Below are positions 4,915-38,617 of a stretch of 64,000 nt of DNA, piece after piece (within the stretch, counting starts at the first letter, position 1; the number at the start of each line of letters is the position of its first letter). Source of the DNA: a virus (lineage: Duplodnaviria > Caudoviricetes); the IMG/VR virus record IMGVR_UViG_2974592265_000001, positions 24,404 through 88,403 of that record; one strand, given 5' to 3'. Both the position numbers and the translations under genes were made by a program. The notes under the pieces are model-generated. The model worked only from the letters and a program-made list of their open reading frames with translations. It searched no databases and was not told the DNA's origin.

Positions 4915-4943
4915 GAGGGCAGCGATCGCTGCCCTCGTTGTTT
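4915..4943 (+). terminator. Intrinsic terminator at the late/replication convergence point
   Basis: GAGGGCAGC-GATC-GCTGCCCTC followed by GTTGTTT, between convergent genes. Confidence 0.65.
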
Positions 4944-14163: not shown

Positions 14164-17100
14164 TCACTACCTCCTCGTCTTCATCCAGTTCAACGTAGGT
14201 TGGCTTACGGATCGGATCGAACGGCTCCAGCAGATCCTTCTCCCAGATGTTGATCCCTTCAGTAAGGGCGCGATCCACGAAGGCAGCGACGTTCTCCTGG
14301 CTGATGTTGCGGCCGAGTTCGTGCACTTTACCCCAGTCGCAGCCGATGGAAAACTCCGGTACTTGGCGGACTTTGTGGCCAGGTGGGGTGGATTCTTCCA
14401 TGTAGCGGCCGACTTCTTGGCAGTAGTCGTAGACATCGTCCTTGTGGACCCAGGACACCACTTCGTCGTAGATCGGAGCAAAGAAGACCATGCGCAGCCG
14501 GTCCATGATCCCGCTCTCGGCGATTCGGGTCAGCACGATGCGCAGCATCTGCGCGGCTGAGCCCTGAATCGTGGCGTTGGTGCCCTGGCGGTGCTGACGG
14601 GCTACCCGACCGCTGTCGTTGCTGAACAGATCCGGAGTGGCGTGACGCTTGGTGCCGAAGGCCGTCAGCGTGAAACCGTTCTGGGTCATGAACTGCGCCG
14701 TCTCGGCTTGCCATGGACGAATGCGGGTGTACAGGTCGAAGGTGCCGTCCAGCAACTTCTTGGCTTCCTCGACCGGGACGATCAGGTTGCGCGACAAGGT
14801 GCCGGCACCGGCGCCGTATGCCATACCGAAGTTTACGGTCTTGGCCTTGCCCCGGATGGCCACGGTGATCTTGTTCAGCTTGTGGTTCTCGTCGTCCTTC
14901 GCTTCGATGAAGTCCTCGTAGGTCATCTTGGCGATGCCGGAACCGGTCATGCTGTGCAAGTCTTTTTCGTTGGCCGGGTCGTACACCGACATCATCACCG
15001 GGTCGTTAGCGAGGTTCGCCATCAGGCGGATCTCTTGACCGTTGAAGTCGATGGCCACGCAGACGTGATCCGGGGTCGGCGGGATGTAGATCGACCGCAT
15101 CACCTTGCCTTCGCCACGCTTGGCCACCTGCAGGATGTTCGGCGCGCTGCCGGTAGGCCTGGTGGTGTCGGTGCCAGCGTCGGTGATGGAAGGGTGAACC
15201 TTGCCATCGCGGTGACGCCACATCGGGTACTTATCGTGGTACAGGCTGCACCTGGTGTTGGCGGACTTCACTCGGCGCAGGATAACCAGCGCGTCACGCT
15301 GCCAGCATTCCTGCAGCACGTCGTTCGCCAGCGCCGTCAGGATGGCCTGCTCGTCAGTCGACGGGCCTGCTTCCTGAATGCCGACCGCCAGGCGGCCCTT
15401 GCCGATGTTCTTGCCGCGCAGCTTGACCGGGATGCCGATCTTGCAATACAACAGTTGCTGCATCTGCACAGGGCTGCCCACGTTCAGCGGATCGCCGAAG
15501 GTGACGATACGCGGCTCGACCTTGGCCAGCTTCTGCACCAGGGCGCCCAACTCGTCAAACGCCTTCTCGGCGACGAACAGCTTGTGGGTGCAGGTGTCTT
15601 CAGCTGACTCCGACTCGTCTGCCGCGCGGCGCAGGTCGCCCATCTTCAGGCAGCCCGCTGCAACGGCCGTGGCGATCGCCTTGATCAGCTCACGCTGATC
15701 GTCGGTGACCTTCCACTCGTCTTCGAAGCCAGCCACGCCGACCTCGTAGTACCACTCGGTGATCGCCTTCTGCGTCAACTTCTCCAGCGGTGGCAGGTCG
15801 AGGTTGAGCAGGGCTGGCGCCAACTGGTTCGCTGTGAAGGCGAAGTCCGGCATCACCGACTCCTCGCGGAACGGCGTGTACTGGCAGGCTGCTTCCAGCT
15901 TCTTGCGCCACTCAGCGACCTTCGAGTTGGCGACGTCGACGTTGCCTTCAGCCTTCTTCTTGGCACCGCGGAAGATGTAATCCTTCTCGGCGTCAATCAG
16001 CGACTTGCAGCCTGGCGTGATGTTGCCGGTGACGTTCTTCTCCAGAATGGCACGCAGTTCCAGCATACCCTCCTCGATGGTCTTCAGGTCCTGAGCGTGG
16101 ATGCGTTTCTGGCACGCCCAGTTCATGTCGACACCGGCCACGTAGGAGCGCTGTAGCACCTCGGTCGGCCGTACTGCCCAGCGCCGGTAGAAGTCCCACT
16201 GCCCGTCCAGCTTCAGCAGCAGCTCCAGCAAGTCGTGCAGGTGGCCGGTCACCAGGCTGTCGTCGGTGCCGTAGGTGAAGACTTCGTCAGCGGTCAGCTC
16301 ACACATCATGCTGACGCCTTCACCGCCGTTACCGGCCGCCAGGGTGTCTTGGAACGAGGTCTGCTCGTAGCCCAGGTAATTCAGCGACAACGCCTTCAGG
16401 CCGGCTTCCATGTTCTCGTCGTAGAAGCGCTGCATGATCCGGGTGTCTTCGATTTCCTTGAGCCAGACACCGAGGTTGGTCTGGGTCACGACGCCTTCGA
16501 ACAGGGCGTTGTGAGCGATCCGCCGGGTGTATTTCCCAGCGAATTCAAGGATCTCAAGGATCACGTCCTTATTGACGTTATTCGAGTCACGGTGGTCGAC
16601 CGGGATGTAGATCACGTTCTCCAAGTGGCGACCGAACTGGAACGAGGCACCGGCCAGTTCCTGGCTTAGCATGTCGACGAAATTGCTGCCCGAAGTCGAG
16701 GCAATGCGGAAGTCACGAATCGGGTTCTTGTCGGAGGATTCATAGTCGAACGCGGTTTTGTCGCCCGCCTTGATCTCTTCGAAGATCTGCTCCTTGAGCT
16801 TGTCCCAGTTGGTCGAGTCAACGATCATCGGCACCGGCATCAGGTGACTGTACTCCGCCTCCCACATGTCCTCGCAACCGATCTCCTTCAGGCAGTTGTA
16901 CAGCGCCGTCGGGTCCGGTACACGCTTGTGGATCTTCGGCTTGGTCAGCTTCTTCAGCCGGGGTTTCCAGCACAGCTCCGGCTTCAGGTTGGCCAGCTTC
17001 CAGCCCATCCGCCAGTCACCGAAGTTCTCGCGCAGCTTGATCAGGATCTTGTCGCCGGACTCCGCAATGGTCTCATCGAGGAGGTCGGTGTTGCCCTTGG

Positions 17101-17809
17101 CGACGATCTCAGCCAGTTCGTCCAGGCCGTCGGCGCCGTAGGCCTCCAGCAGCTTGAGGATCTTCGCCGGACCCATCCCCTTGACGCCGGGGTAGTTGTC
17201 CGAGGTGTCGCCCATGATCGACTTGGCGAAGCTGGTCAGCCGGTAGGGCAGGCCAGCCAGCTCCATCCCTTCCGGGTAGACGCCGTCTTCGCCGTTCAAG
17301 CCGGCGTGGTGGGCGACGTTCTTCAGGGTGACGATGGTGTCCTGGTTGACCAGTACCAGCAAGTCGGCATCGACCGTGCTGACATCCTTCGGGCCGGGGA
17401 CTGTGTTGCAGATCCAGCCGATGAGGTCATCCGCCTCGACGTTCTCCACAAACATCTGGGTGGCACCGAGGGCTGCGAAGAACTTGCGTGCCCACACCGA
17501 CAGCTCTTTGTACTGAGCAATTTCTATCGGGCTTTTGTTTTTGTCCTCCTTGGCTGCCTGGCCTTTGTAGGCCGGGTAGATACCGAGGCGGTAGGCTTTG
17601 CCGGCGTCGTGTGCCACCAGCATTTCACGCGGGGAACCGCCCTTCTCAAGGATAGGGCGGATGTAGCGGGTCAGAAAGTCCGCCGCGCCGGCTTGCCAAT
17701 CTGCAAACCGGCGATCGAGTTTCGTGCAGTGCAACGTTTTATCAGACACGCCGTAATAGGCGTGTTTGATACAAGCACGGAAGTCGATGATCTGAAGTGG
17801 ATTCGTCAT
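14144..17809 (-). CDS. Family A DNA polymerase with 5'-3' exonuclease, 3'-5' exonuclease and polymerase domains
   Basis: 5' nuclease motifs IIDF...VAHD...EADD...MGDTSDNYPGVKGMG; exo motifs FDYE, AHNALFE and YGTDD; motif A IDFNGQEIR, motif B RGKAKTVNFGMAYG, motif C IYDEV. Confidence 0.95.
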   Translation of the reverse strand: MTNPLQIIDFRACIKHAYYGVSDKTLHCTKLDRRFADWQAGAADFLTRYIRPILEKGGSPREMLVAHDAGKAYRLGIYPAYKGQAAKEDKNKSPIEIAQYKELSVWARKFFAALGATQMFVENVEADDLIGWICNTVPGPKDVSTVDADLLVLVNQDTIVTLKNVAHHAGLNGEDGVYPEGMELAGLPYRLTSFAKSIMGDTSDNYPGVKGMGPAKILKLLEAYGADGLDELAEIVAKGNTDLLDETIAESGDKILIKLRENFGDWRMGWKLANLKPELCWKPRLKKLTKPKIHKRVPDPTALYNCLKEIGCEDMWEAEYSHLMPVPMIVDSTNWDKLKEQIFEEIKAGDKTAFDYESSDKNPIRDFRIASTSGSNFVDMLSQELAGASFQFGRHLENVIYIPVDHRDSNNVNKDVILEILEFAGKYTRRIAHNALFEGVVTQTNLGVWLKEIEDTRIMQRFYDENMEAGLKALSLNYLGYEQTSFQDTLAAGNGGEGVSMMCELTADEVFTYGTDDSLVTGHLHDLLELLLKLDGQWDFYRRWAVRPTEVLQRSYVAGVDMNWACQKRIHAQDLKTIEEGMLELRAILEKNVTGNITPGCKSLIDAEKDYIFRGAKKKAEGNVDVANSKVAEWRKKLEAACQYTPFREESVMPDFAFTANQLAPALLNLDLPPLEKLTQKAITEWYYEVGVAGFEDEWKVTDDQRELIKAIATAVAAGCLKMGDLRRAADESESAEDTCTHKLFVAEKAFDELGALVQKLAKVEPRIVTFGDPLNVGSPVQMQQLLYCKIGIPVKLRGKNIGKGRLAVGIQEAGPSTDEQAILTALANDVLQECWQRDALVILRRVKSANTRCSLYHDKYPMWRHRDGKVHPSITDAGTDTTRPTGSAPNILQVAKRGEGKVMRSIYIPPTPDHVCVAIDFNGQEIRLMANLANDPVMMSVYDPANEKDLHSMTGSGIAKMTYEDFIEAKDDENHKLNKITVAIRGKAKTVNFGMAYGAGAGTLSRNLIVPVEEAKKLLDGTFDLYTRIRPWQAETAQFMTQNGFTLTAFGTKRHATPDLFSNDSGRVARQHRQGTNATIQGSAAQMLRIVLTRIAESGIMDRLRMVFFAPIYDEVVSWVHKDDVYDYCQEVGRYMEESTPPGHKVRQVPEFSIGCDWGKVHELGRNISQENVAAFVDRALTEGINIWEKDLLEPFDPIRKPTYVELDEDEEVVSDNIAD

Positions 17810-24106: not shown

Positions 24107-26991
24107 TCTGCTGGCTCCGATTCCCTGGCAAAGTTGTTGAGCGAAGTACCCTTCTCAGTCAGGCGCTTGGCGTTGATCACGTAGACTTCGATCTCGTTGT
24201 TGTTCGGGTGCGGCTCGATGCGCTCGAAGTACACCTCACCCTCAATCAGCTGAGTCAGCTGCTGGAACTGGCGGATCACCGGCACCTCGCCAACCATCCG
24301 TGAGTAGGCATGGTAACGCGGTAGGCAGGACTGCAGGACCAGGTACAGCGAGTCGCCCTGGCGCCAGTAGTGCTTGCCGGCCTCCAGACGCAGGCGGTCT
24401 TCGAAGGTGTCGTCCGCCATGATGTTCATCGACCCGAGAACGCGGTCGACTTCCGAGGCTGACTTGCCACGTTCCACTTCGGTCACACGACCGCCGAGGT
24501 AGGTGATCAGCTCCGATTCCAGCCAGCGGATGTCCTCGACACCGTCGACGCCGAACTCGGTCATGGTGTGGATCAGCATGTGCAGCCCGGTCAGGCAGCA
24601 CTGCATGCCCCAGCGAGGGCGGTCCTCCATCCCGGCGTGGATCTGCTCCGCCTTGCTGTGGAAGATCTTCAGCAGCGCGGTAGGGGAGGTCCCCAGTGCC
24701 ACGGTGACCAGTGCCCGGGCCATCCGCAACAGGGCCTGCTTGTTCTGCACGCAGACCCGGTAGTTGTCGCGGTAGACCTTGTTCTGCAGCGACTTGGCCT
24801 GCAGGCGGACTTCCACCGAGCGGCTGCGCAGGGCAGGAGCGGTGGCGGACTGCTCACTGGTGTACACCAACGGCGCCGAAACACGGTCCTCGCTGACAGC
24901 CAGCTCCCGGTCAGCGCCGATACGGCCACGCTGAATAGGGGCATGACTCCACGCTGCCTTGAGGATGCCGAGGATGGCACCGTAGCGGGTGTTGCCCAGC
25001 TGCACCGGGTTCACTTCTTCGATCAGCCGAGGCACCGTGGTGCTGCTGCTCACGTACTTGGTCAGCGGGAACAGCGTGCCGACCTCGACGTTCTGCAGTT
25101 CGGCCTTGGTGTAGTCGATGCCGTTGATCATCGCCATCAGCATGGCCAGGCAGGACTTGCCAGCGCCGGCGTTGCCGAAGATGTTCATCAGCGGAAACTG
25201 AGGTTCCTCGAACTGGATGTGTTCACGGAAGTGGCACGAGACAAACCAGCCCAGCATCTGGGCCACGGCCACCGGTTCATTCACTTTGCACAGCGCTTTC
25301 ATCACCGTGGCGAGCTGTTCATCGTCCTGCAGCGGGTTGCTGCCGTTGATCAACGCAGGCGACTGCCGCGCATTGCCGTTGAAGCGGTACGGGCTGCGCC
25401 CACCCAGGTTGGTGATGGCGTTGCCAGCTTCGACGTAGTGCGCGACCGTGCCCTTCTCGCCGCGGTCCAGCACGATTCCGCAGACGTTCGCACGAATCAT
25501 CTTGTCTAACTCCTTGTCCTCGGTCTTGTCCCGTGCAAACTTCAGCAGGGCCACCAGTATTTTTTGAATTTCCCCGTCGCCGGCATACACCGCTGCGTCC
25601 CGGCCTTTAACGCCGGAGATCAGGTCACGCTTGGAACTCCAGGCGCGCTCCGACAACGACACCTCACTGGCCACGTCGCAACCGTCCACGATCAGTTTCC
25701 CGACCAGTTCCTTGCGCTCGGTGTTGCGCCAGCTGGTGAAGCCTTTGTCAGTGGTGTAGGGCTCCAACTCGAACACTTCCAGCGTCGGCCAGAAGGTGAA
25801 GTTGGTCAGCTGCCGGCTGCTGTCCTCACCGACCAAGAAGTACCCGGCCGGGTCCCAGCGGATGCGGACCTGCGTGTTGAAGTTGCTGACGTTCTCTTGG
25901 GTCGTCTCGCCGCTGGCCACATCCGAACGGCAGATAGGGCACTGACGGCATGGAGTGCCGATCGCTGCGATCAGGGCGCCAGGCGCAAACTTGATCGAGC
26001 CGCTGAAGGTCCGGTGCAGCTGGCCTTGAACATGCTTGAGGCGTTCGGTTTCCGAAGGCCGGCTGCTCGACTCCACGTTCTTCACGAACGGGCGCACCAG
26101 CAGCTCCATGTACTCCTTCTCTTCCGACTTCTCGTAGCGGGCAGCGATGTAGGCTGCCAGCTGCATTGCCGTCTGGTTCCAGTTGGAGCCTTCAGCGTGG
26201 CCTTCGGTGATCAGCTTCTCGATGCAGCCAGGGATGCCGTCCCACTCACGCATGGCTTCCTTGGGCACCACGCAGGCGGCGCTCATGGCTTTGACCTTGC
26301 GCTGCGCCGTGGTCTTGGCAGCCTTCAGCAGTTGTTCAGCCTTGGCGTAGGTGACGTTCTTGCCTGGCTGCGGCTGGGCCAGAACAGGGCGCGGTGCAGC
26401 GACGATGGAGTGGTATTCCTCGCTGTTCATGTGCGCCAGTTCGTTGACCGTGGTGCCGACCTTGTAGGTGCCGCTGCCGGGGCGTGGAATGCCTTCACAG
26501 CGCCACATCCGGCCACGGCCACAGGAGTACACCGACTCATCCAGGCTGCACGGAGACTCCAGGTGCGCGCCCTTCATGATGGTCAGCATGATCTCCCGAT
26601 AGATCATCGGCAGGAACTTTGTCGGCTTTTTAACGCCAAACACTTGCGCCGGGATGGTGATGTGCACACCCTTCCCGCCGGACAGCCAGCAGTGAATGAA
26701 CTCCTCCGGGATGTCCAGCTTGTTCATCAGGTAGTCGAGGACCGCGTTGACGTCAGCCAGCACCTGGTCGATGTCGTCGGCGTCGTCAAAGTCCAGGTAC
26801 ATCGGACCCATGTAATGCACAGTCTCGACGGCGTTAAGGCCGTTTTCAGAGACTTCTTCGGGGTTTTGGTCAACCATCAGGACGGTTCTGAACGCAGGCG
26901 ACTTCGGAAGCTCAGCTGATTGCAGCTGCTCTTCTGTGTACATCCGCCATGGTTCCTTCTTGTCCGGTCTGAACTGAAGGAAGTAATACAT
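24103..26991 (-). CDS. AEP-family primase fused to a P-loop helicase-like domain
   Basis: YLDFDD and SGGKGVH (AEP motifs), CRQCPIC zinc-binding motif, C-terminal GNAGAGKS Walker A. Confidence 0.82.
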   Translation of the reverse strand: MYYFLQFRPDKKEPWRMYTEEQLQSAELPKSPAFRTVLMVDQNPEEVSENGLNAVETVHYMGPMYLDFDDADDIDQVLADVNAVLDYLMNKLDIPEEFIHCWLSGGKGVHITIPAQVFGVKKPTKFLPMIYREIMLTIMKGAHLESPCSLDESVYSCGRGRMWRCEGIPRPGSGTYKVGTTVNELAHMNSEEYHSIVAAPRPVLAQPQPGKNVTYAKAEQLLKAAKTTAQRKVKAMSAACVVPKEAMREWDGIPGCIEKLITEGHAEGSNWNQTAMQLAAYIAARYEKSEEKEYMELLVRPFVKNVESSSRPSETERLKHVQGQLHRTFSGSIKFAPGALIAAIGTPCRQCPICRSDVASGETTQENVSNFNTQVRIRWDPAGYFLVGEDSSRQLTNFTFWPTLEVFELEPYTTDKGFTSWRNTERKELVGKLIVDGCDVASEVSLSERAWSSKRDLISGVKGRDAAVYAGDGEIQKILVALLKFARDKTEDKELDKMIRANVCGIVLDRGEKGTVAHYVEAGNAITNLGGRSPYRFNGNARQSPALINGSNPLQDDEQLATVMKALCKVNEPVAVAQMLGWFVSCHFREHIQFEEPQFPLMNIFGNAGAGKSCLAMLMAMINGIDYTKAELQNVEVGTLFPLTKYVSSSTTVPRLIEEVNPVQLGNTRYGAILGILKAAWSHAPIQRGRIGADRELAVSEDRVSAPLVYTSEQSATAPALRSRSVEVRLQAKSLQNKVYRDNYRVCVQNKQALLRMARALVTVALGTSPTALLKIFHSKAEQIHAGMEDRPRWGMQCCLTGLHMLIHTMTEFGVDGVEDIRWLESELITYLGGRVTEVERGKSASEVDRVLGSMNIMADDTFEDRLRLEAGKHYWRQGDSLYLVLQSCLPRYHAYSRMVGEVPVIRQFQQLTQLIEGEVYFERIEPHPNNNEIEVYVINAKRLTEKGTSLNNFARESEPAE

Positions 26992-26995
26992 GGCG

Positions 26996-27244
26996 TCAAT
27001 CCTTTGTCATACGGGCCTGGGAGAGACGCTTAACGAGGGTTTTGCCGTCCTTGTTGAACGCGGTGAAGTCAACGTCCAGCTCAAGGTCACGGCGGCTGAG
27101 GGCTTTTTTGAACAGGGTGATGTTGTAGACCTGCTCGTCCATCTCGACGGCGCCCCCAATTTCGGCGGAGTTGTAGAAATCAGCCAGCTTGTTGTAGTCG
27201 ATCGGGGTACGGGTAGGCCCGACCTCTTCTTTGACGACCTTCAT
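26996..27244 (-). CDS. Hypothetical protein
   Basis: GGAG RBS; packed between the helicase and primase genes. Confidence 0.6.
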   Translation of the reverse strand: MKVVKEEVGPTRTPIDYNKLADFYNSAEIGGAVEMDEQVYNITLFKKALSRRDLELDVDFTAFNKDGKTLVKRLSQARMTKD

Positions 27245-27272
27245 GTGAGGCTCCTATTGGCACGGGTAGGAT

Positions 27273-28610
27273 TCAAGCCTTGAACCCCACCTTGTTGATA
27301 AGCAATTCCTGTTGTGGCCGGCTGAACGCCACGTACAAAAGCCGCTGCCTTTCACTGCGGATTGGATTCTCCAGCAGATCTTTGACATCGACCATTACAC
27401 GCTTAAAGGTGCTGCCCTGGCTGCGATGGACCGTGATGCAGTAGCAATACTTGAGGTCGGCAAACAGGTCAGTGAACTTGTGCAGCTGCCGCCAGTGATA
27501 GCTCGCGTTGCCCCCGGTTTTGGCGGCTTCGAGGGCTTTGGTTTTGATCTTCTGGCAGTGAGCTTCGAACCGCTCATACTCGTCTTCGTGCAGCACATGA
27601 GCGAAGACTTGCTTCACATCAGCATACACAGGATTCAGCGTGACCAGCCACGTCTTCCACGACGTGCTGCTATATTCGTCGAACATCTTGCTTTCGCTAA
27701 CCGCGCCAACCAGCGACTCTTCGTCCGTGGACAGGATGGTGTCGCCGTCACGGCTGATCGGTTTGGCAGTCACCAGGCGCTCACCCAGCTCAAAGCGGGC
27801 GGCGTTAGGGCCGTAGATTTTGGCGCGAATGGCGTTGTTGATGTCATCCACACGGAAGTTGCGCCACGCCAGGACACGGACATCCTCGAGGTCCGTGGTC
27901 AGGTCGAACTGATCCACCACCGTCTTCAGGAAGTGGGCAGCTTTGACCACCGTGACGTTGTTCTCCGGCACGAAGTCGAAGTGGAAGGTCTCCTTGTTCT
28001 TGATCGCGGCTCGCAGTGGTGCGGTGATCAGCTGGATGCCGTTCGGTGTTCCGTCCGGGTTGTTCTTCTGCCGCTCCGCCTGGGTCAGCTCGACCGTCGG
28101 GAACAGGCCGAACGCCTTGGAGGTGGTCTCCTTCACCGGCGGCAGCTGCATGTCATCGCCCATCATCAGGCAGAACACTTGCTGAGCCTCCAGCTCCGGC
28201 AGGAAGTAGTCGAACAGGAAGTACTCGCCCAGCATCGACATCTCGTCGCAGACCAGGACGTGGTACTCGCCGATCACGCTGTCCCGCACCTGCACCGCAC
28301 GCTTCTTCTCGTCGGTGGGCATCATGGACAGGCCGAGGGCGCTGTGGGCGGTCTTGAAGCCGACCTTGTCCATCGGCAGCCCCGCTGCCCGCGCGGCCTT
28401 CTCCAGCTGCTTGACGGCTTTGTTGGTGGGCGCCACGAAGATGGCCTTGACCCCGCCCTCGATCAGGATGCTGGCCAACTCCATGACACAAAAAGTTTTA
28501 CCGGTGCCGCCTTCGCCAATGATGGTGAAGCCAGGCTTGCCTTCTTCGTAGGCATCGAGCGCCCCGTTGACGCCGATGACCTGGCCGCTGTTCAGTCCCA
28601 TACCCGTCAC
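27273..28610 (-). CDS. Dda/RecD-like SF1B DNA helicase
   Basis: GEGGTGKT, APTNKA, VCDEMSM, GDDMQLPPV, YCITVHRSQGST and LLYVAFSRP. Confidence 0.92.
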   Translation of the reverse strand: MTGMGLNSGQVIGVNGALDAYEEGKPGFTIIGEGGTGKTFCVMELASILIEGGVKAIFVAPTNKAVKQLEKAARAAGLPMDKVGFKTAHSALGLSMMPTDEKKRAVQVRDSVIGEYHVLVCDEMSMLGEYFLFDYFLPELEAQQVFCLMMGDDMQLPPVKETTSKAFGLFPTVELTQAERQKNNPDGTPNGIQLITAPLRAAIKNKETFHFDFVPENNVTVVKAAHFLKTVVDQFDLTTDLEDVRVLAWRNFRVDDINNAIRAKIYGPNAARFELGERLVTAKPISRDGDTILSTDEESLVGAVSESKMFDEYSSTSWKTWLVTLNPVYADVKQVFAHVLHEDEYERFEAHCQKIKTKALEAAKTGGNASYHWRQLHKFTDLFADLKYCYCITVHRSQGSTFKRVMVDVKDLLENPIRSERQRLLYVAFSRPQQELLINKVGFKA

Positions 28611-28648
28611 CTTATAAATTTATATGTTTATATGCTTATAGGATGGGC

Positions 28649-28677
28649 ACGATAAAGAACCGTGCCCTCCCGGTCAA
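28649..28677 (-). promoter_or_regulatory. Sigma70-type promoter
   Basis: TTGACC-17 nt-TATCGT on the - strand, upstream of the Dda-like gene. Confidence 0.6.
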
Positions 28678-28997
28678 GATCTCGGCGAGAAAATATCTAC
28701 GACGGATCCGCTTGACACGTCGGCGGCGGGTCTATCCCGCATGTGCCGCTGAGTATGGAAGAACAGCACGACGTCCTTCGACGCTTCTTCCAGGTCGCCG
28801 GTAGCCAGGAACCCTTTGACGAACTCCACGTAAGGGTCGCGCAGCTGTTCAGCGGTGAAGGCCTTGATGCCTTCCGGCCGCAGGAACTGATCCAGCGCTT
28901 CCACGTAATAGTCGATCCACTGACGCTGCTGCGCCGTGGTGCCGGTGTCGCCCTTCTGTTTGACGATCATCAGTAGTTCAGTTTTTATGCGTTCCAC
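28674..28997 (-). CDS. Hypothetical protein
   Basis: GGAG RBS; coding-like ORF. Confidence 0.6.
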   Translation of the reverse strand: MERIKTELLMIVKQKGDTGTTAQQRQWIDYYVEALDQFLRPEGIKAFTAEQLRDPYVEFVKGFLATGDLEEASKDVVLFFHTQRHMRDRPAADVSSGSVVDIFSPRS

Positions 28998-29033
28998 ACT
29001 TTCTCCTTCTGGGCCAACGGCCAGTGTTACGGG

Positions 29034-29837
29034 TTAATCCGGGATGCCGGTCATCAGCATGGTGCGAGCCCGGCTGACCAGCCGTGGGTCGGCCACCTGC
29101 TTGACGTTGCGTACCTTGCTGGTGAACTCCTCCGGTAGGAAGTCGACCGCCTCGGGGAACTGATCCTGCAGCTGTTTCAGCGTGCGGATCGAGGCGAGGA
29201 TCTTGGTCAGATCGTCGTGCATCTCACCCGCTGCCTTCAGTACTGCGAGGAACGAGGCCATCAGGCGATCGACCTGCAGCGACAGCTGGTAGGCGGCCTT
29301 GGAGTAGGGCAGGCGAGGGTCGTTCTTGTCCGTCATCACCACGTCGGGGTGGAAGATGTGACCCAGGCCACGGATGCTTGGCAGGTCGGCGTGGCTGGTC
29401 TTCCAGCTGTAGTGGAAGTCGTAACCGCCGGTGTACACGCTGGTGAAGTTGAGGAACCCGCCCCACTCAGCGCTGACCGCGCGGCGGACTTCGTCCCACT
29501 TATCCTTGTCAGCTTCGCGCTCTTTCTGCTTGCTGGCGTAGCCGACGGCGATCTTGCCCAGCTCGGTGTTCTCGGTAGTGTTGTGCTTGTCACCGACCTT
29601 GTTGGTGACCAGGTAGACCACTCCCTTCATGCCGCTGAAGATCTGCTCCTGAATCAACTCAGCCCAGCGTGCCTGGGGCACCTCCGGGATCTTCAGCTCG
29701 ATGTGTTTGGCGAACAGCTGGCGCCACAGCTTGTCCAGCGCCTTGGCCGCCTTGGCTGTCGGCGCTGCCTGGCGTTTGGCGGCGTGGCGAATCATTTCGG
29801 CGATCAGGTGCTTTTTGACTTCGTTGGTGATGTTCAT
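29034..29837 (-). CDS. Nucleotide-modification-associated domain 5 (Nmad5)-like protein
   Basis: C-terminal IRTLKQLQDQFPEAVDFLP resembles the Nmad5 TxKQLxxxWPE motif. Start at ATG 29837. Confidence 0.65.
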   Translation of the reverse strand: MNITNEVKKHLIAEMIRHAAKRQAAPTAKAAKALDKLWRQLFAKHIELKIPEVPQARWAELIQEQIFSGMKGVVYLVTNKVGDKHNTTENTELGKIAVGYASKQKEREADKDKWDEVRRAVSAEWGGFLNFTSVYTGGYDFHYSWKTSHADLPSIRGLGHIFHPDVVMTDKNDPRLPYSKAAYQLSLQVDRLMASFLAVLKAAGEMHDDLTKILASIRTLKQLQDQFPEAVDFLPEEFTSKVRNVKQVADPRLVSRARTMLMTGIPD

Positions 29838-30214
29838 TGCTGCCCCTTGTAGGCGGTGTTGAAGTGGTGGGTGAGGACCTTGTACAGGTTGACCGTCTGT
29901 GTGACCCCTAGTTTTCGGCACAGCTGGACCCGTTCCTCGTCGGTCCAGATCGCCATCAGTACCGACTCCTGCGGCACCTCCCACATCGCGCCGGGGGTGT
30001 ACAGCATGGCGAAGTTCAGAGTCTTGCCGACGTTGCTGCGCTGCGGCCGGGTGACCTCGCTGTACATCAGGCCCAGGGTGATGGCGGTGGTGATGGTGTG
30101 GATGTCCAGCAGTGCGCTGGTCGGCTGCAGCGGCAAGTCACCGTGCTTCTCGTAGTGCTCCAGCACCCGCTGCTCGATGGCAGCGAAGTCCGTGGTAATT
30201 TTCTTCTCGGTCAC
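29834..30214 (-). CDS. 126-aa stand-alone fragment resembling DNA Pol I motif A through the O-helix (fingers)
   Basis: GTG start with AGGAG RBS; DFAAIEQRVL...DIH..T.A..LG...VT..QR...KTLNFAMLY. Confidence 0.75.
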   Translation of the reverse strand: MTEKKITTDFAAIEQRVLEHYEKHGDLPLQPTSALLDIHTITTAITLGLMYSEVTRPQRSNVGKTLNFAMLYTPGAMWEVPQESVLMAIWTDEERVQLCRKLGVTQTVNLYKVLTHHFNTAYKGQQ

Positions 30215-30615
30215 TTCAGGTACTCCTTTCGCACACGGCGCAACACCGTGGCATGGCTTAGGCCTGGCCAGCCGTACAGCCTGGCCTTGCCGTCTTCGGT
30301 AAATTGAATCCACTCGGTCCAGGTGTACGGATCAGCCAGGCTGATTGAGCGGTCCACCCTTCGGGTCAGTTTCAGTCGGGTGTCTTCACCGACGCCGGCC
30401 GCCAGCAGGTCGAACATCCCCCGCTGCGCCGACTCAGTGAGCGACATGGACGGGAAGCGCTCGTCCTTGGCGAACTCGATCAGGGTGGAATAGGGGATGG
30501 ACCGCTCCTTTTCCCAGCGGTTTATGAATGTTTCCAGCGCCTTACGCTTCCATCTTGATGTTGCTTCAAGCAGCGTCTGCCCGGGTCTCGCCGGCCAGGT
30601 AGGCTGCAATATCAT
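30211..30615 (-). CDS. Hypothetical protein
   Basis: Stop overlaps the next GTG start; start position uncertain. Confidence 0.5.
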   Translation of the reverse strand: MILQPTWPARPGQTLLEATSRWKRKALETFINRWEKERSIPYSTLIEFAKDERFPSMSLTESAQRGMFDLLAAGVGEDTRLKLTRRVDRSISLADPYTWTEWIQFTEDGKARLYGWPGLSHATVLRRVRKEYLK

Positions 30616-33600
30616 GCTCACGTCCACGTTCCTGCTCCTCGGTCCTTTTCGGGACAAACACCCAGGCCTGTACAAAGGCCCCTTCGTTCATGGTCATCAC
30701 TTCAGGGTTACTGTCGAGGATGACGATGTCCGACACCGCCTTGGCGATTTCCACCGCCCGTTCACGGGCATCGGCCATCAGCAGCTTGTTGCGCAGCATC
30801 CGCTCGTTGAGCTTGGTGATCTTTGCCAGCGGGAACGTCTGGCCGATGTCCTGCATCAGCTGCAGCTCTTCTTCGGTCCAGCTGCCCCGAGGCTTTTCCA
30901 GGTTGGTGATGAAGCGCAGCAGCCGGGCTCGCCAGTGCTGCGGCTCGACCTGGGCAAACTTCATCAGCACCAGGCACTGGCTGACGCTCAGCTCGCCGGG
31001 CTTGCTGACCGGCACCACGCGGTAGACACCGCGTTTCTCCGGCACCGCGCGGCACTCGGCGTAGGACGTGGCCTGCTCCTCGTCGCTGAACTTGGGGCCA
31101 GGCGCCCAGTAGCCTGGCTTGCGCCACTGTATTTGGTGGGTCCAGGGTTTGAACGCTCGGGTCATTGTGGCGCTCCGAACTGGAGCAGCAGGCGGTCAAG
31201 CAGCGAGTTCAGGTCGATGTTCGGCGAGATCGACTCGGCCGCGCCGACCGCCTGAACATGCTGCAGGGCCAGCATCAGGCTGCGCAGAGGGCCTGCGTGT
31301 TCTTCCTGCATGCCGGACGGCGTCTTCTGCCCGAGCAGCGCGGTGGCCTTGTCGCGGTCCATCCAGATGACCAGACCAAACTTCTCCGGCCGCATACCAC
31401 CGCGCAGCACCGACGCGCTGTCGATGGTCATCTCGGTGGTGAAGGTCATCTCGTTGTAACCCTTGCGGGTGCGGTAGTCGCTGAGGCACTGGTCCAGCGG
31501 CTGCAGGACGGTGCCTTCGTGATCCATCAGGACCAAATTTTGTAAGCTGATTCCCATGAGAGACCTCAGATGACCAGGAGTGGGTGGGTGGTGGCTTCGT
31601 CAAAGCCCTGCTTGACCAGGTGGTCGATGGCCAGCTCGCAGGCGTCTTCATCGCTGATCGGCGTGGAGCGCAGCATCACGACGTAGACGTACACGTCCTT
31701 CATGCCTTCTTGCGGTGGGGTCGGATCAGCGAACTTGACCACCTTGGTCAGCGTGCGGTTGCCCACTTCCTGCAGGATGTAGCACTTGTGCGGGCTACCG
31801 CTGAACTGCAGGCGGTAGACGTCCTCGAAGCCCGTGGCCGCTGCCACCCTCTTCCAGTCCTCACCAGCCTCGTCGGAAGGGTGAGCGTGCATCAGGTCAC
31901 CATCGTCGTCCTTCCAGACGGTGCGATAGTCCCGGCCGCTACCACGGGAAACCCGCAGGCCCTCGGCGAGGAGGGCTTCAATTTGCGTTAAAGTCAGCAT
32001 CGGTAAGTCCCGCCTTAAAGTCTGCAGCCAGTTGGTCGATAGGGTTCTGTACACCGCCTTGGGCCGTTGGTAGGCCGCGGGTGGCAATCATCTCGCGGAT
32101 CAGGTGGGACTGGCCGACGTTGCCGAGGGCAGAAAGCACATTGTGTAGGGCGTGCTTGTCGACCACGCAGATGGTCTGGAAGTAGCCGTGCTTCTTCAGG
32201 CCGTTGAAGAGCGCCAGCACCTGTCGGTCCAGCATCTCTTCCTTTTTCTCGATTCGCTCGATCAGCTGATCCATCAGGACCACGTTGGGCAGCTGTTGCT
32301 CGCGGCCTTCGACCGGCAGGTACTTACGCAGGGCGTCGACCTGTTCTGGAACCAGCTCGTCACCGTTGCTCAGTCGTTGGATCAACCGGTCAGCCAGTAC
32401 CCCGGAAACACCGTTCTTGTCGGCTTCCCGTCTCGACTGCAGCTCGGTACAGAGCATGATGACGTCACCCGCCCCGATGGGCTGACAGTCGGCAGCTTGC
32501 AGTACCAGGGCTTGGATGTTCTTGTCACTGAGTAGATGCATGGATGACTCCTTGTTTCACTTCACACCGGCAGCGGCTCATGTACTTCTTGACCGCCACG
32601 TTGGCTGATTCGCTGACCGGCCGCTTACGCAGCTTGCAGGTGCAGCTGGTTTCGAAGAGGTCCCGCAGGATCTCGTTCTTGGTTTGAGGGATGGCGAAGG
32701 CTCGCATCTCGCCGTACACCTCAGCCTCCCGGCCTCGTAACTTGGGAGTCGGACCGAACCAGCCCCTGACCCCGTCAATTCCAAAGCCATGGACGAAGGT
32801 CATGTGCTCCGCTGGGATCGGTCGGCCCGACTCCAGGATCTTCCAGCCCTTCGGAGGGTCCGGCACCAGAAGGCCGTGAGGGATACCACCGCCGCGCAGG
32901 GTGCGGTAGCGGGCTCGCTCGCTGTTCCTGTCCCGTTCGCTGCCCCACACGACCCACTCCCACACCGGGCGGCCATTGCTGACCATGTTCCGGCCGAAGG
33001 ACTGCTGATGCTGGCGGACCATGAGGACGCCCTTCACGTACTTCTCGTCACCGGCCTTCAGCTTGCGAGGCGGCGAGCCCCGGCGGAAGGTGTAGGTGAT
33101 GCTGTCAATTCTCGGTTGCATCTATTTTCTCCCTCATGGGGGCCAGGTGGCTGATGTTGAAATCCAGTTGATGCAGGTCAGCCTTTATGCACTCCGCCTT
33201 TTCCTTGAGTACACGCTTGGCGCCTTGCAACGCCACGGCATGGAACTCAGGGCGCACGGAGCCCATGACCTGGACACTCATCTGGCCGTCCAGCTGCACC
33301 GTCCAATACAGCTGGCACAGTTGCGCCCACTCATAGAGGAGCTCTTGGATCTTGGTGTGCTGCTCGAAACTAATCATCCGCGGGCTCCTTGGGCTTGCCA
33401 CATTCAGCGCAGAAGACATGGCCGGTGCCAGAGTGGCCCAGCCATGTAGGGTGCAGGCAGAACGCTTGGATCAGCTGCTCCGCCGCCTTGTACACGTAGG
33501 GGTTCAAGTCCATGGTGCCGTCGCCCTGGCGCTTTAGTTTGAAACCCGCTGCCACACAGATGCGCTTGACCTGATCGTTATTCAGCCGTGACATCGGCGG

Positions 33601-35431
33601 CCTCCTTCACTGGCAAGGTGCGGATGAAGCGACCAGCCACGGTGACGTCGCGCTTCTTCAGTTTCGACGTCACCCGGTACTTGTCAGCGCGCTCGTCGTA
33701 CATGACGACACGGCCCTTGTCCTGCTCCAGGCCGATCGACCAGCTGACCACCTGGCCGACTTCAATGTCCGGCACCGGCAGGCCGCCGTTGCGCAGGGCG
33801 ATGTCGATGGCCTTGTTCAGGTTCTTCGCTGACAGGCTGAACGTCTCAGGCGGCAGCTTCATCAGGATGGCCAGCTGGGCTTCCGTGAGGACCTGGCCCT
33901 TGAAGATCATTTCGTGCATGGCGCCTCCAGAGGTGCTGGGATGCACTCGGTGCAAGCGATCTCGATCGGCTGCCCTTCGTGATCCTTGTCGGTGGTGGTC
34001 AGGACCCGGCTGTCTTCACAGGCCAGGCAGTGGTTGGAGGAGGGGAGGACGACCGGGATATGCACGCCGTCCAGCTTGTCCGTGGTCAGAGCAGCGGACT
34101 TGGTGAATTCTGCCTGAAGTACCTGATGGGTCTCAGAGAGCTTTTCCATGTCGACACCCTTGATCCCGGCTGCCTTGGCGACCTGAATCTGCGCCCCGAC
34201 CAGGGCATCAAGGAACATGTAGGCACCGGCCTTCTTGTAGACCAGATGGTGCAGCGCTGCCAGGGCCAGCTTCTTCACGTCACGGGAGGTCAGCCTGACC
34301 ACCGAGTCCGTGGTCAGCGGATGCCGGCTGTTCGGGTGCAGCAGTACCGCCTTGATGTCGAAGCCGGTGCCGAGTTCGCTGATCGCCAGCGGCGCCTGGA
34401 ACCCTTTGGCGTGGCCGGCTGCGGTGTGCAGGGCGAACTTCAGTTTCGCCCCGAGAATTTCTTGCTCCCACTCATAAAAGAGGGGCGCGTCTACCAGGCC
34501 CGCTAGGGTGCGGACCTGCACTGTACCTTTGGCTTTCATACCCACTCCTTGCTATCCATCCAGCGATTTATGTCGTACTTCATGCTCGGCAGCACCTTGG
34601 GGTCGTCGAGCGCTTCCGCCATCCACTTCCCGACAAAGGCATCCTCCGGGGTGGCGACGGCGGTCTTGTGTCGTAGGCCGACGATCTCGGCCTTGGTCAC
34701 GCGGCTGCGATTGATCTTGCGGTTGTCGATGACGCCCTGCCAGCTCTCACGGACGTCCATGGCTTCATCCAGGTCGTTGGCCCGGCCGAATTCCTTGGTG
34801 CCGTTGGCGCGGGTCAGCTGCACCCCGAGCAGCTCGTCGATCTCGACGTTGCACACCGCTGACTGGCCGTGCCACCAGTCAGCGTGCTTCTTGGCTTGGT
34901 CGATGGTCTCGAAGCGTTCGTCGAGGCCAGGCAGGTTGCCGTTGGTGTTGTTGGCGATTACTCGAAATTGCATGCGTCCCCATCCTTGATTGCTACGTTG
35001 AGTTCTTCGCTGTGGAACACGAGGCCAGCGACGTCGAGCTGGGCGCCGTCACTGGTCAGGCTGGTGGAAACTTCCACCAAGGTGTCCATCAGCGCGCTGC
35101 GAGCGGCCTCGGCGTCCATCCCCTCGATGTTCACCTTGCCCCGCAGGATCAGGTGGTACTCAAGGTGCTTGTCGCCACCCTCCGGCTGGCAGACCGGCGC
35201 TGCCACCGCTTTCCATGGCAGGCCGTGGCCCGGGTTACCGTGTTCCAGGCAGTCGCTGCTGACGCAGTTGCCTTCCGGGTCGACCTGAATCGGGCCGCAG
35301 CCCTCACACAGGGCTGACGCTGCCAGCCCCTTGTCCCAGTCTTCTTGGGTGGTCAACCCCTTGAGGTCGTTGTTTTCAGCGGCGAACGCACCGAACATCT
35401 GTTCGCTACACGCCTTGCAAAAGTCTGCCAT
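30566..35431 (-). other. Chain of about 11 co-oriented hypothetical ORFs (30566-31165, 31162-31557, 31566-32000, 31978-32541, 32525-33121, 33105-33419, 33370-33594, 33578-33919, 33907-34545, 34536-34973, 34958-35431)
   Basis: Head-to-tail packing with short overlaps and GGAG-type RBSs; no recognisable family motifs. Confidence 0.65.
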
Positions 35432-38400
35432 TTACGCGGTCTCCGCCATGTCACGCTCAAGTGCCCAGCGTGGGATGTTTGCTGATACCAGTGCCCGGGC
35501 CAGACCCGGCGGCACTGAGTTGCCGACCATGCGAACTTGTGCATGCTTCGGAAGTTTTTTGCCCATCACCACCTCGTGCTGGTAGTCAGCCGGGAAACCC
35601 TGGCAGCGGTACAGCTCGTGCGGTTCCAGCATTCGCATGCCGATGTCGACGATCTGGTACTCCTGACCCTTGAAGGTCACCAGACCGAAGCGCGCCTTGC
35701 TGGTGATGGTGTCCAGCGGCTCGTCGCAGCTGACTGCGCCGCCGGTGCCGTAGAACTTGATCAGGAAGGCCTGCACCGCGGCGTAGTGGTTGCCTTGGGC
35801 ACCGATGGTGTCCAGTGGGCGGTCCAGGGACTGGCCGTGCTGGCAGGTACCTTTCAGTTTCACCAAGCTGCTGGCGACCAGTGCCGACTTGCCTCCGCCG
35901 CCGGCGGTGATCACCCCCAGTGGTTCATCGGCGGCGTGGCCGACGCTGTTGCCGAAGTCGCGCTGGATGTGGGCAGCGTGGATCGCCTCGTCCAGATCGT
36001 GCTCGACCTCTGTGGGAGCGAGCGTGGCTTCCATCACCGCGTTGTGATCCGTGGCGGTGATGGTCGGCAGCGGCTTGTCCAGGGTCTGGCCTACAACCCC
36101 GGTGTAGTGCTTGAGCAGCGCTGCCACTTGGATGTGGCGGGCCTTGCTGACCACGGTGGACAGCGGCTGATCCAGCGACTGTGAGGTGTCCTTGGTGCTG
36201 GTGTGGTCGATGGTGGCGACGAAGCTGGCCTGTACCGGCTCCAGTTGCGCTTGCAGGACACCCAGTGCATGAGGTGCTCCAGCAGGTCGGGCGGCACCAC
36301 CACCGGCTGTGATGGTCGGCAGCGGGGCGTTGCAGCTGGTGCCGCCGGACTCACCGCGGAACTTCATGATGGCAGCGGCGGACTGCAGCTCGGCTTCCAC
36401 CAGGGCGAAGCGGGTGGCGCCGGCCATCACGGTGTCCAGCGGGGCGTTGGCCGACTGGCCGATGCTGTTCTGGTTGAACTTGCTCAGCGAGACGGCGGCC
36501 AGGCCGGTGCCGTGCTTGCTGGTCAGCGTAGCAATCGGATCGTCCAGTGACTGGCCACGGAAGTCGCTGCCGCCGTGGTTGGTCTTCACCAGAAACGCCT
36601 CGTCCCCGGCGCCGATCACGAACTTCTCGATGCCCTTGAAGATCCGCGCCATGGTCTTGTCAGCCAGCGGCTTCTTGCGGTCGAAGATCGACGGGCAAGC
36701 CAGGCTGAAGTCGAGGTTGTCACCGGCGGTCTTCCACGGCTGCAGCTTGCCCGGGTTGGCCTTCAGGAACTTCTTGTCAGCGTGGGTCGGCTCCGGCCAG
36801 ATGATGGGCAGCCCGTCCTTGCGGGCCATCAGGAAGAAGCGGTTGCGGGTGGTGGGGTCGCCGTAGTCACAGGCGTTCAGGCCCTTTTCCTTCCACTCGA
36901 CGGTGTAGCCAGCAGCGCGCAGCTGCTTGACGAACTGCTTGAAGGTCTGGCCGGCGCGCTTCTTGTCCGGCACCAGCGCCTGCTCCCAGTAAGGAACGTA
37001 CTCACCGGGCTCGCTGACCACCTCGTTCATCACCGGGTCTCCGTTCTTGTCCTTCTTCACCGGATCCGCGACCAGCTTGATGACCCGCTTGGTGGTCTTG
37101 CAGCGCTTGGCAATCAGCGGACCCCAGGTCAGGAATTCCTTCACGTTCTCCATGAAGACCATGGCCATGTCCGCCTGGCCGACCCACTTCTTGACGATCC
37201 AGGCCAAGCCGCGAATCGCCTTCTTCACCGGCTTGCCACCCTTGGCCACCGAAAAGTGGGTGCAGTTATGGACGACGATGCCTTCCACGACATAGCTCTC
37301 GTCGTCTTCAACGGAGAGGTTGAACACCTGGACAGGTTCGTCCAGTTCGGTTACTTCTTTGACCGCTCCCCATTCCATACCCTCGTCACGCCACGACTGT
37401 TGGTGTGCCGCGTCAACCTCGTTGCGCCACCGAACTGACCAGATAGGCTGACAAGTGACATCACGGCCTTCAATCTGGTTAACGGCGCGTGGCTTGGCCT
37501 TGTACACCAGAACGCTTTTGCCCAGTGAACTGGCCAACGCCTTGATGCCGAAGATCAGCTTCTTGCCCACGCTGTCCGCCTGCCATAGCCCGTCACGGAA
37601 GTACCCGTCGGCTTCCATGTACCCGTCGAGGAATCGCTGACGGCATGTTTCGTCCAGACCCAGTAGCCAGGCTGGGACTGCCTTGTTCTCGGCGCGGTGG
37701 CCGACATTGTCGCGTAGCCACTCGACCAGACCTTTGTGATTGGTGGACAGCTGAGTTGCAGTGCGTGTGTTGCGGCGGTGCCAGGCCAGCTCGTTGTACC
37801 CACAGCGTCCGCCGCTCACCGGGCACCAGTGACGCAGCTTTGACACCAGTCCGTCTGCCTTGTCGTTGTGAGTGGTAAGGACCAGTTCAGCGCGCTCATT
37901 GCCGAGGCGGCTCCAGCCGTTCCCTGCGTAGTAGCCTGCTAGCCATAACAACTCGTGGCTAATTTCCATACCCCGACCACCCACCTGAGGAATGCTCAAG
38001 TTGCTGGTGCTGAAGTCTGTTGGCGTGGCCCAGTAGTCGTTCCGGGTCAGCTGTCCGGCGGTTATCCACTCTGACGTCTCCGCCTTCTTGCCGCGGCGAA
38101 CGTAGAATGGGTGCTCACTGCTGACCTGCAAGCCTGGGTGGCCATAACCGCGGATCTGCAGCAACGGCTTCACCGCGGTCATCACCTTGGTGACTTTCTT
38201 CCAGCGGTTGTTGTGGGTCCACACCAGCTGGCCTACAGCGACGTTGTCGATGGCTTGGTAGCCCTCACTGGTCAGCACCAGGGTGCTCGCAGGGAAGCAG
38301 TCCGGACTGAACCAGCCCATCAGGGCGGGCTGGCCGTTCAATGCTTCGGGGATGTTGATGTCCCACACCGACTCGTTGTAGTGCTTGGTGGTGGGGTGGT

Positions 38401-38575
38401 TCTGCTCGTGCATCATCAGCGCTTCAGCGTTGTGATTGACGGCGATGTCAGGGGAGAAGCCGAGGCCTTGGGCGATACCGGTAGAGGCACCGCCGCCACC
38501 GGCGAAGTTGTCGGCGACCAGGCCGCCGAGCCAGCGGTAGTTGGCAGGCATGGGGTACGAGTTGATGTCACGCAT
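35432..38575 (-). CDS. C5 cytosine DNA methyltransferase containing an intein
   Basis: DNFAGGGGAS (motif I), FSPD|C (motif IV, split by the intein), MENVKE (VI), PTTRNRFF (VIII), RMLEPHELYRCQGFP (IX), VGNSVPP (X). Likely start ATG 38575 after an AAGGA RBS. Confidence 0.93.
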   Translation of the reverse strand: MRDINSYPMPANYRWLGGLVADNFAGGGGASTGIAQGLGFSPDIAVNHNAEALMMHEQNHPTTKHYNESVWDINIPEALNGQPALMGWFSPDCFPASTLVLTSEGYQAIDNVAVGQLVWTHNNRWKKVTKVMTAVKPLLQIRGYGHPGLQVSSEHPFYVRRGKKAETSEWITAGQLTRNDYWATPTDFSTSNLSIPQVGGRGMEISHELLWLAGYYAGNGWSRLGNERAELVLTTHNDKADGLVSKLRHWCPVSGGRCGYNELAWHRRNTRTATQLSTNHKGLVEWLRDNVGHRAENKAVPAWLLGLDETCRQRFLDGYMEADGYFRDGLWQADSVGKKLIFGIKALASSLGKSVLVYKAKPRAVNQIEGRDVTCQPIWSVRWRNEVDAAHQQSWRDEGMEWGAVKEVTELDEPVQVFNLSVEDDESYVVEGIVVHNCTHFSVAKGGKPVKKAIRGLAWIVKKWVGQADMAMVFMENVKEFLTWGPLIAKRCKTTKRVIKLVADPVKKDKNGDPVMNEVVSEPGEYVPYWEQALVPDKKRAGQTFKQFVKQLRAAGYTVEWKEKGLNACDYGDPTTRNRFFLMARKDGLPIIWPEPTHADKKFLKANPGKLQPWKTAGDNLDFSLACPSIFDRKKPLADKTMARIFKGIEKFVIGAGDEAFLVKTNHGGSDFRGQSLDDPIATLTSKHGTGLAAVSLSKFNQNSIGQSANAPLDTVMAGATRFALVEAELQSAAAIMKFRGESGGTSCNAPLPTITAGGGAARPAGAPHALGVLQAQLEPVQASFVATIDHTSTKDTSQSLDQPLSTVVSKARHIQVAALLKHYTGVVGQTLDKPLPTITATDHNAVMEATLAPTEVEHDLDEAIHAAHIQRDFGNSVGHAADEPLGVITAGGGGKSALVASSLVKLKGTCQHGQSLDRPLDTIGAQGNHYAAVQAFLIKFYGTGGAVSCDEPLDTITSKARFGLVTFKGQEYQIVDIGMRMLEPHELYRCQGFPADYQHEVVMGKKLPKHAQVRMVGNSVPPGLARALVSANIPRWALERDMAETA
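37265..38299 (-). mobile_element. Intein (345 aa) with a LAGLIDADG homing endonuclease
   Basis: Starts CFPASTLVLTSEG and ends FNLSVEDDESYVVEGIVVHN, followed by Cys; internal LLWLAGYYAGNG and FLDGYMEADG blocks; more AT-rich codon usage than the extein. Confidence 0.95.
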
Positions 38576-38617
38576 CAAGAAATCCTTAGGCGCCACGGGG
38601 CGTCCTTGTCGTGTGGG

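Follow-up and report, generated by a model that had tools for sequence, protein, structure and literature searches.

The 64,000-nucleotide stretch of viral DNA analysed here (positions 24,404 to 88,403 of IMG/VR record IMGVR_UViG_2974592265_000001, a virus of 88.4 kb; hereafter the window) carries a gene for a 126-amino-acid (aa) protein that corresponds to the fingers subdomain of bacterial DNA polymerase I (Pol I), encoded on its own. We are close to certain that this protein, which we call mini-PolA, is a Pol I-type fingers module and that it has been maintained by selection. As to function, we propose that mini-PolA is a putative non-catalytic binder of nucleoside triphosphates, which would sense or sequester its ligand, and we give this reading a probability of roughly 40%. 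The gene and the segments of its product lie as follows.

29834-30214, minus strand: mini-PolA gene (P0001), encoding the 126-aa stand-alone fingers subdomain; open reading frame (ORF) and translation, GTG start.
30167-30190, minus strand: motif A segment, residues 9-16 (D-F-A-A-I-E-Q-R), equivalent to Pol I D705-R712 in the Klenow alignment.
30098-30106, minus strand: D37-I38-H39 in helix N, equivalent to Pol I D732-I733-H734; D37 in 28 of 28 and H39 in 27 of 28 family representatives.
29999-30040, minus strand: O-helix (motif B), R59...K64...F68...Y72; the alignments to Klenow and to phage PMBT3 show an additional residue in the interval from R59 to K64.
29924-29998, minus strand: family-specific conserved segment after Y72 (T-P-G..W-E-V-P.E..L..I-W-T..E), invariant in the close family.
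29837-29923, minus strand: C-terminal helices, the last residues being H-F-N-T-A-Y-K-G; in a weak hidden Markov model (HMM) similarity they run colinear with the Y-F-x-x-Y-P region in which the PolA fingers end.

An earlier reading of the DNA, made from the letters alone (the sequence-only reading), had listed D9, E14, R16, D37-I38-H39, R59, K64, F68 and Y72 as counterparts of Escherichia coli Pol I residues, with spacing conserved to within 0-2 residues. All of these residues are found in mini-PolA, and each interval proved to be exact or off by one. D9 and E14 are five residues apart, as are Pol I residues 705 and 710, and E14 and R16 are two apart in both proteins; the interval from D9 to D37 measures 28 residues (Pol I, 27), that from D37 to R59 is 22 in both, that from R59 to K64 is five against four, and K64, F68 and Y72 follow one another at 4 + 4 residues in both. 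In Klenow and Taq, the fingers residues equivalent to Pol I D732, H734, R754, K758, F762 and Y766 hold the triphosphate and stack on the incoming nucleotide.

Profile comparisons gave significant similarity over the same region. The Pfam model DNA_pol_A (PF00476) matched residues 6-75 of mini-PolA at model positions 155-222 of 381, thus about 68 of the 381 positions, with an expect value (E) of 2e-6 and 27.5 bits, a score that falls under the curated cut-off of 34.3 bits; two distant family members score above that cut-off (P0063, 44.0 bits; P0073, 38.4 bits). The NCBIfam Pol I models match the same stretch. A profile of the mini-PolA family aligned with the Klenow fragment residue for residue from motif A to Y766 (E 2.3e-6, 30.8 bits), pairing D-Y-S-Q-I-E-L-R, D-I-H and Q-R..K..N-F..Y with the corresponding mini-PolA motifs, and hhalign gave a probability of 96-97% for the match between the family and full-length PolA proteins. 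Judging by these alignments, the likeness to Pol I is real and no chance resemblance.

The match has informative limits. The N-terminus of mini-PolA starts eight residues ahead of motif A. At the other end, most full-length PolA proteins fail to align with the segment after Y72; one of them, P0186, is colinear with family profile positions 8-126, and its F-F-D-V-Y-Y-K pairs with the terminal H-F-N-T-A-Y-K-G (HMM alignment, weak similarity). This arrangement suggests that mini-PolA is a whole fingers subdomain cut at its natural boundaries. Motif A is kept, with the catalytic aspartate (D705) and E710 as D9 and E14. As the sequence-only reading had it, the thumb, motif C and the exonuclease are missing: the protein has 126 residues, Pfam coverage ends at model position 222 of 381, and mini-PolA ends at the fingers/palm boundary, so that motif C (H-D-E) with the second catalytic aspartate, and the thumb and palm core that hold the primer-template, are all lacking. 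Because it has no thumb, palm core, motif C or exonuclease, mini-PolA cannot polymerise DNA.

Mini-PolA belongs to a family of similarly sized proteins. A word-indexed search recovered 24 close homologues (119-129 aa, 51-99% identical), many of which come from contigs 75-89 kb long. An exhaustive profile search of 1.84 billion proteins added about 25 more distant clusters, with proteins of 88-155 aa that align over the entire profile (E 5.5e-29 to about 7e-6). Full-length polymerases match the profile mainly at positions 8-78. Every mini-PolA ORF examined was intact across the approximately 50 sequence clusters, and the family does not consist of sporadic truncations. Other short matches to PolA (P0105, P0153, P0185 and others) were considered as extra mini-families and rejected; they look like remnants of ordinary Pol I genes, broken or shifted in frame, in assemblies of poor quality, and we therefore left them out of the count.

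The sole named relative among GenBank phages is the Pseudomonas phage PMBT3 (Maxrubnervirus, 87 kb), whose gp061 (120 aa, annotated "hypothetical protein") shares 57% identity with mini-PolA and occupies the same genome position; a megablast search of the mini-PolA locus against GenBank phages gave no match at the DNA level. The window phage is Pseudomonas-type and PMBT3-like (Maxrubnervirus-related), and the close homologues and distant clusters likewise come from relatives of PMBT3. The distant members at loci L007, L008 and L009 show the same gene order wherever flanking DNA sufficed, and the mini-PolA family is therefore old within this phage lineage. In a search of sequencing runs, no RNA data set contained the sequence, and a single soil DNA run shared a small proportion of the words of the locus.

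The close family alignment contains 35 invariant columns, which include D9, E14, L-L-D-I-H-T-I-T, Q58, R59, G63, K64, N67, F68, Y72 and the segment T-P-G..W-E-V-P.E..L..I-W..E. Across 28 representatives of the whole family, which are 25-69% identical to mini-PolA of the window, D37, A44, V54, R59, K64 and Y72 are invariant (28/28), and H39 (27/28), P81 (26/28) and Q58 are nearly so; position 68 is F in 21 and Y in seven, and D9 and E14 are each present in 22 of the 28. Four of the seven known deoxynucleoside triphosphate (dNTP) contact residues are among the eight best-conserved of about 70 PolA-aligned positions (hypergeometric P = 0.002). By this alignment, the positions under the strongest constraint in mini-PolA are the nucleotide-contact residues of the polymerase. 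The median pairwise ratio of non-synonymous to synonymous substitution rates (dN/dS; Nei-Gojobori method, NG86) was 0.45 for mini-PolA versus 0.52 for its downstream neighbour in seven phages, a crude estimate with dS near saturation; all it can show is that mini-PolA behaves as a constrained coding gene does. The earlier view that this is no decayed pseudogene is borne out by the intact ORFs, the invariant functional residues and this dN/dS of about 0.45.

Mini-PolA was compared with the polymerase of the same phage, which is complete and lies 12 kb downstream.

14144-17809, minus strand: the phage's own polymerase, 1221 aa, with 5'-3' exonuclease, 3'-5' exonuclease and PolA regions; Pfam DNA_pol_A 181.6 bits, positions 12-380 of 381.

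Against the mini-family profile, this polymerase scores 3.5 bits, the Klenow fragment 30.8 bits and the best full-length PolA proteins about 50 bits. Because 3.5 bits stands so far below about 50 bits, mini-PolA is no recent partial copy of the phage's own polymerase; the earlier suggestion that it is nearer to bacterial Pol I agrees with the Klenow score. Mini-PolA descends from a canonical Pol I-like sequence; it was excised from a canonical family A polymerase in an ancestor of the PMBT3-like phages and has since been kept by selection. A search of the whole 88.4-kb record with PF00476 found only the 1221-aa polymerase and the mini-PolA ORF, and profile searches of the upstream neighbour (gene U) and the downstream, Nmad5-like neighbour gave no PolA signal. 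The genome thus holds no complementary PolA piece, and mini-PolA is therefore no part of a split polymerase. The phage's own polymerase also has an insertion of about 25 residues between its D-L-H motif and the O-helix, and two separate DnaQ-like exonuclease genes are present in the genome (12989-13735 and 18102-18689).

The proposed binding of a nucleoside triphosphate would use the contacts that the fingers make in the parent enzyme. H39, R59 and K64 would hold the triphosphate, while F68 and Y72 would form the stacking contacts to sugar and base; the same contacts occur in the open Pol I fingers of binary dNTP complexes, as in the Klenow-dNTP structures. By such binding the protein may detect or tie up a nucleotide, or an analogue of one, at an early stage of infection. 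The sequence-only reading had put forward a sponge for dNTPs or messengers, a decoy and an inhibitor of the Pol I pathway as possible roles.

Several observations weigh against this proposal. Motif A has been lost in six of the 28 representatives, a few of which start only at D-I-H. All 24 close homologues carry the extra residue between R59 and K64 (Q-R-x-x-V-G-K), with a variable position four before K64; in this subfamily the arginine and lysine therefore cannot occupy quite the same places on the helix as in Pol I, which should alter the triphosphate geometry. PMBT3 (Q-R-R-V-G-K) and the distant members (Q-R-x-x-A-K) have the canonical spacing. The other dNTP and metal ligands of Pol I, D882, Q849 and R682, are missing from mini-PolA, and isolated fingers are expected to bind dNTPs weakly, so that a stoichiometric sponge is hard to argue. 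The conserved residues could instead serve structure or form a surface for mimicry.

Structure prediction is a further point on this side. An AlphaFold2 model of mini-PolA built from a 24-sequence alignment is all-helical, with a predicted local distance difference test score (pLDDT) of 72.8. Foldseek against the PDB returned family A polymerases for nearly all of the top matches, the best with E of only about 0.9, and VIA-align superposed the model on Taq and E. coli Pol I with Z of 2.0-2.1. In the wide, unbiased VIA search the best Z was 3.8, to unrelated chains. The only significant match in the BFVD structure search was the PMBT3 homologue. These searches with a predicted model neither show nor exclude a fingers fold, and the case for homology rests on sequence. 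Among the weak BFVD matches were very small viral proteins annotated as PolA fragments or resembling them (A0A5P8D3M6 of Pectobacterium phage CX5, 60 aa; A0A6J4EKI9, 66 aa; A0A6S6MFH7, 61 aa).

In the window, mini-PolA stands in a cluster of genes in which the order, all on the minus strand, is U, mini-PolA, the 267-aa Nmad5-like gene, a 107-aa gene, a Dda-type helicase, an 82-aa gene, a primase, a DksA-like gene and an SNF2 helicase. The features nearest to mini-PolA are the following.

30211-30675, minus strand: upstream gene U, an ORF of up to 154 aa with an uncertain start, whose stop overlaps the mini-PolA start.
30223-30229, minus strand: Shine-Dalgarno sequence AAAGGAG, 8 nt 5' of the mini-PolA GTG, read from the sequence.
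29034-29837, minus strand: Nmad5-like gene, 267 aa, whose ATG overlaps the mini-PolA stop; phrog_15487 E 8.9e-58, weak Pfam Nmad5.
28674-28997, minus strand: conserved 107-aa gene, directly after mini-PolA where the Nmad5-like gene is missing, from a comparison of relatives.

The mini-PolA start overlaps the stop of gene U in a GTGA (30211-30214), and its stop overlaps the Nmad5-like start in an ATGA (29834-29837), both read from the sequence. With the AAAGGAG placed 8 nt from the GTG, these overlaps agree with the earlier description of a good ribosome-binding site and coupled neighbours, and the mini-PolA gene is evidently translationally coupled to both of them. A scan for promoters and terminators over 26900-35500 gave nothing above the shuffled expectation, with no signal within the gene cluster. 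Homologues of gene U occur in relatives with and without the mini-PolA gene alike.

The downstream neighbour matches Pfam Nmad5 with E 2.9e-5, and its homologue in L009 does so with E 4.9e-5 over profile positions 2-197 of 206. The AlphaFold2 model of the protein (pLDDT 84.8) is a long helical hairpin with a beta-sheet insert, and Foldseek and the wide VIA search with this model found only long-helix proteins (Z up to 5.6) and no polymerase fold. We rejected the "DNA polymerase" label of phrog_15487 and of PMBT3 gp060, given that the protein has no PolA profile match and no polymerase-like model; the label on this 267-aa family looks like a misannotation of a distant Nmad5-like protein. In Dhillonvirus, a point mutation in Nmad5 lets phages escape the Tmn defence (PMC11846954).

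Mini-PolA might be a subunit of this neighbour and provide the nucleotide-binding site of a two-protein activity that modifies DNA or nucleotides, an arrangement we judge improbable. It would account for the ATGA overlap of the two genes and for their adjacency in the very distant loci L008 and L009, where the Nmad5-like proteins are only 26-29% identical, and Nmad5 genes do occur in thymidine-hypermodification cassettes of M6-like phages (PMC9476957). However, each gene also occurs without the other, the Nmad5-like gene without mini-PolA in L004, L020, L024 and L026 and mini-PolA without the Nmad5-like gene in L006 and L007, where the 107-aa gene is directly next. That each can stand alone argues against an obligate two-protein enzyme, and no other hypermodification genes were recognised in the window.

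Elsewhere in the family, the module is joined to a putative DNA-binding domain. While the word-indexed search found no longer or fused forms of mini-PolA, the exhaustive profile search gave two, P0066 (236 aa) and P0067 (237 aa), which represent independent clusters. In both, the mini-PolA module is C-terminal and the N-terminal 120 residues resemble two helix-turn-helix (HTH) units, a weak call (HTH_38, E 0.005). The relevant ORFs at related loci are as follows.

5001-5711 of L007: HTH-mini-PolA fusion.
950-1330 of L008: separate HTH ORF of 126 aa, overlapping the mini-PolA start.

The separate ORF in L008 is 34% identical to P0067 (E 2e-8) and matches HTH_23 with E 0.001. It shares 44 nt with the mini-PolA ORF in a different frame; the two may truly overlap, or they may be a fusion disrupted by a frameshift. 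The possibility that the N-terminal domain of the fusions is gene U was rejected, since BLASTP gave no similarity and L007 has U as a gene of its own, upstream of the fusion. The genome of the window has no copy of the HTH domain.

A DNA-binding domain joined to a ligand-binding module is the classic layout of a one-component regulator, and by this analogy the fusions hint that the fingers module is a sensor. In the double-HTH fusions, the module would be the ligand-sensing half of a DNA-binding regulator. More generally, and more tentatively than for triphosphate binding as such, the fingers may have been turned into a free-standing nucleotide receptor that on its own detects or mops up a nucleoside triphosphate, or an analogue that terminates chains, during infection and, when fused to HTH units, acts as a (d)NTP-responsive DNA-binding regulator.

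The interval between gene U and the next conserved gene was compared in 16 related loci by means of a tblastn table, and its contents vary.

Mini-PolA alone: window, L012, L014, L015 and L025.
144-aa membrane protein and mini-PolA: PMBT3, L013 and L016.
144-aa membrane protein alone: L020.
Empty: L004, L024 and L026.
86-aa signal-peptide protein and mini-PolA: L009.

In the tree of the Nmad5-like proteins, L020, which has no mini-PolA, is sister to L016, which has it, within a clade with L025, which also has it (support 98/96 and 97/96). Being nested among carriers, L020 has therefore lost mini-PolA recently and cleanly. The rest of this tree is poorly resolved; at least two changes in mini-PolA content are forced and three to four are most parsimonious. 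Since the most divergent relatives carry mini-PolA, the gene is most simply ancestral and was lost several times, and it is therefore dispensable. Mini-PolA is an accessory gene, and the slot that it occupies, at the head of the replication operon, varies in content. The 144-aa protein, a predicted membrane protein, lies upstream of mini-PolA in some relatives and in its place in L020 (2070-2504); it is also found in PMBT3 (gp062; L001 8534-8968), L013 and L016 and is missing from the window. In L004, the 200-bp gap contains a 68-aa ORF (4798-5004) with a hydrophobic N-terminus that may be a small membrane peptide or noise.

Dispensability in several lineages, together with a dN/dS of about 0.45 that indicates moderate constraint, is also what might be seen if mini-PolA were a functionless relic of a degraded second polymerase, its frame held open only for translational coupling to the genes downstream. 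We regard such a relic as very improbable. The upkeep of a frame alone would not fix residues across members that are 25-40% identical, preserve a length of 119-141 aa over deep divergence, or yield in-frame fusions to another domain, and in the lineages that lost the gene the neighbouring genes were simply re-coupled.

The place of mini-PolA at the head of the replication operon is constant, the order being mini-PolA, usually the Nmad5-like gene, the 107-aa gene, the Dda-type helicase and the primase. This would suit an accessory factor that binds single-stranded template DNA or a replisome protein such as the Dda-type helicase or the primase and tunes replication, as would the fusion with DNA-binding HTH domains and the conserved basic residues, which could touch the DNA backbone. 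Such a role is nonetheless quite unlikely, in that close relatives dispense with mini-PolA while keeping the same replication genes, and the residues conserved (H, R, K, F/Y, Y) are those with which Pol I contacts the nucleotide, not those that contact the template.

Variable accessory slots often house genes for interaction with the host. The slot and the repeated losses from it would therefore also fit a molecular mimic or decoy, by which a Pol I-type fingers face is displayed to titrate a host factor such as a defence sensor, a toxin or an inhibitor. The much greater likeness of mini-PolA to canonical Pol I than to the phage's own polymerase points the same way, as does the strongly conserved family-specific surface segment after Y72. 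We nevertheless consider mimicry unlikely. A shield for the phage's own polymerase should resemble that polymerase, which mini-PolA does not (3.5 bits), and we are aware of no defence system aimed at PolA fingers. PADLOC gave no match for mini-PolA or its neighbours, the set queried comprising mini-PolA, U, the Nmad5-like protein, the 107-aa protein, the 144-aa membrane protein and the HTH fusion. The HTH fusions would also be left unexplained.

The putative triphosphate binder can be set beside three kinds of known protein. With the Pol I fingers (Klenow, Bst and Taq large fragments; PF00476 positions of about 155-222) it shares the colinear D705/E710/R712, D732-x-H734 and R754/K758/F762/Y766, and the best-conserved positions of the mini-family are those that contact dNTPs in Pol I. 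Mini-PolA differs in being a free-standing protein of 126 aa, in the extra residue between R and K, in having its own conserved segment after the Y766 equivalent, and in a predicted model that does not superpose convincingly (Z about 2).

Split family A polymerases, with the exonuclease and polymerase in separate genes, occur in some T7-like cyanophages (Czernecki et al., 2023; PMC10201439). Here too a PolA-derived polypeptide is a phage gene of its own; however, the cyanophage pieces form a complete enzyme, whereas the mini-PolA genome has no complementary thumb or palm pieces and already has a complete 1221-aa polymerase. The same 2023 reclassification of PolA dropped sequences of less than 350 aa before analysis (PMC10201439) and therefore could not see the mini-PolA family. 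Our literature search found no description of stand-alone PolA fingers proteins.

The likeness to phage sponges is one of concept only. Sponges of the Tad1, Tad2 and Acb2 type are small phage proteins that bind cyclic or ADP-ribose-derived immune signals. Like them, mini-PolA is a small accessory phage protein that putatively binds a nucleotide without turnover; no kinship of sequence or fold is expected, and the mini-PolA residues would suit a linear triphosphate.

New features described here are the variable slot with clean losses, the HTH fusions, the independence of mini-PolA from the Nmad5-like gene and the extra residue between R59 and K64. The fingers are usually studied inside the whole enzyme, and the mini-family is a natural experiment on fingers alone. 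If nucleotide binding is true, mini-PolA would represent a new type of ligand-binding domain, and it would be a candidate means by which phages monitor or buffer nucleotide pools or counteract defences that rely on nucleotides; if the fingers do act as a receptor, they would form a new class of small-molecule sensor domain derived from a polymerase. As a cultured phage with a homologue (gp061), PMBT3 makes the family experimentally tractable.

Further along the window, a 1054-aa C5 cytosine DNA methyltransferase (35432-38596, minus strand) contains an intein at approximately residues 100-444 (Pfam Intein_splicing, PT-HINT and Hint_2). The PMBT3 homologue of this methyltransferase has 687 aa and is annotated without an intein.

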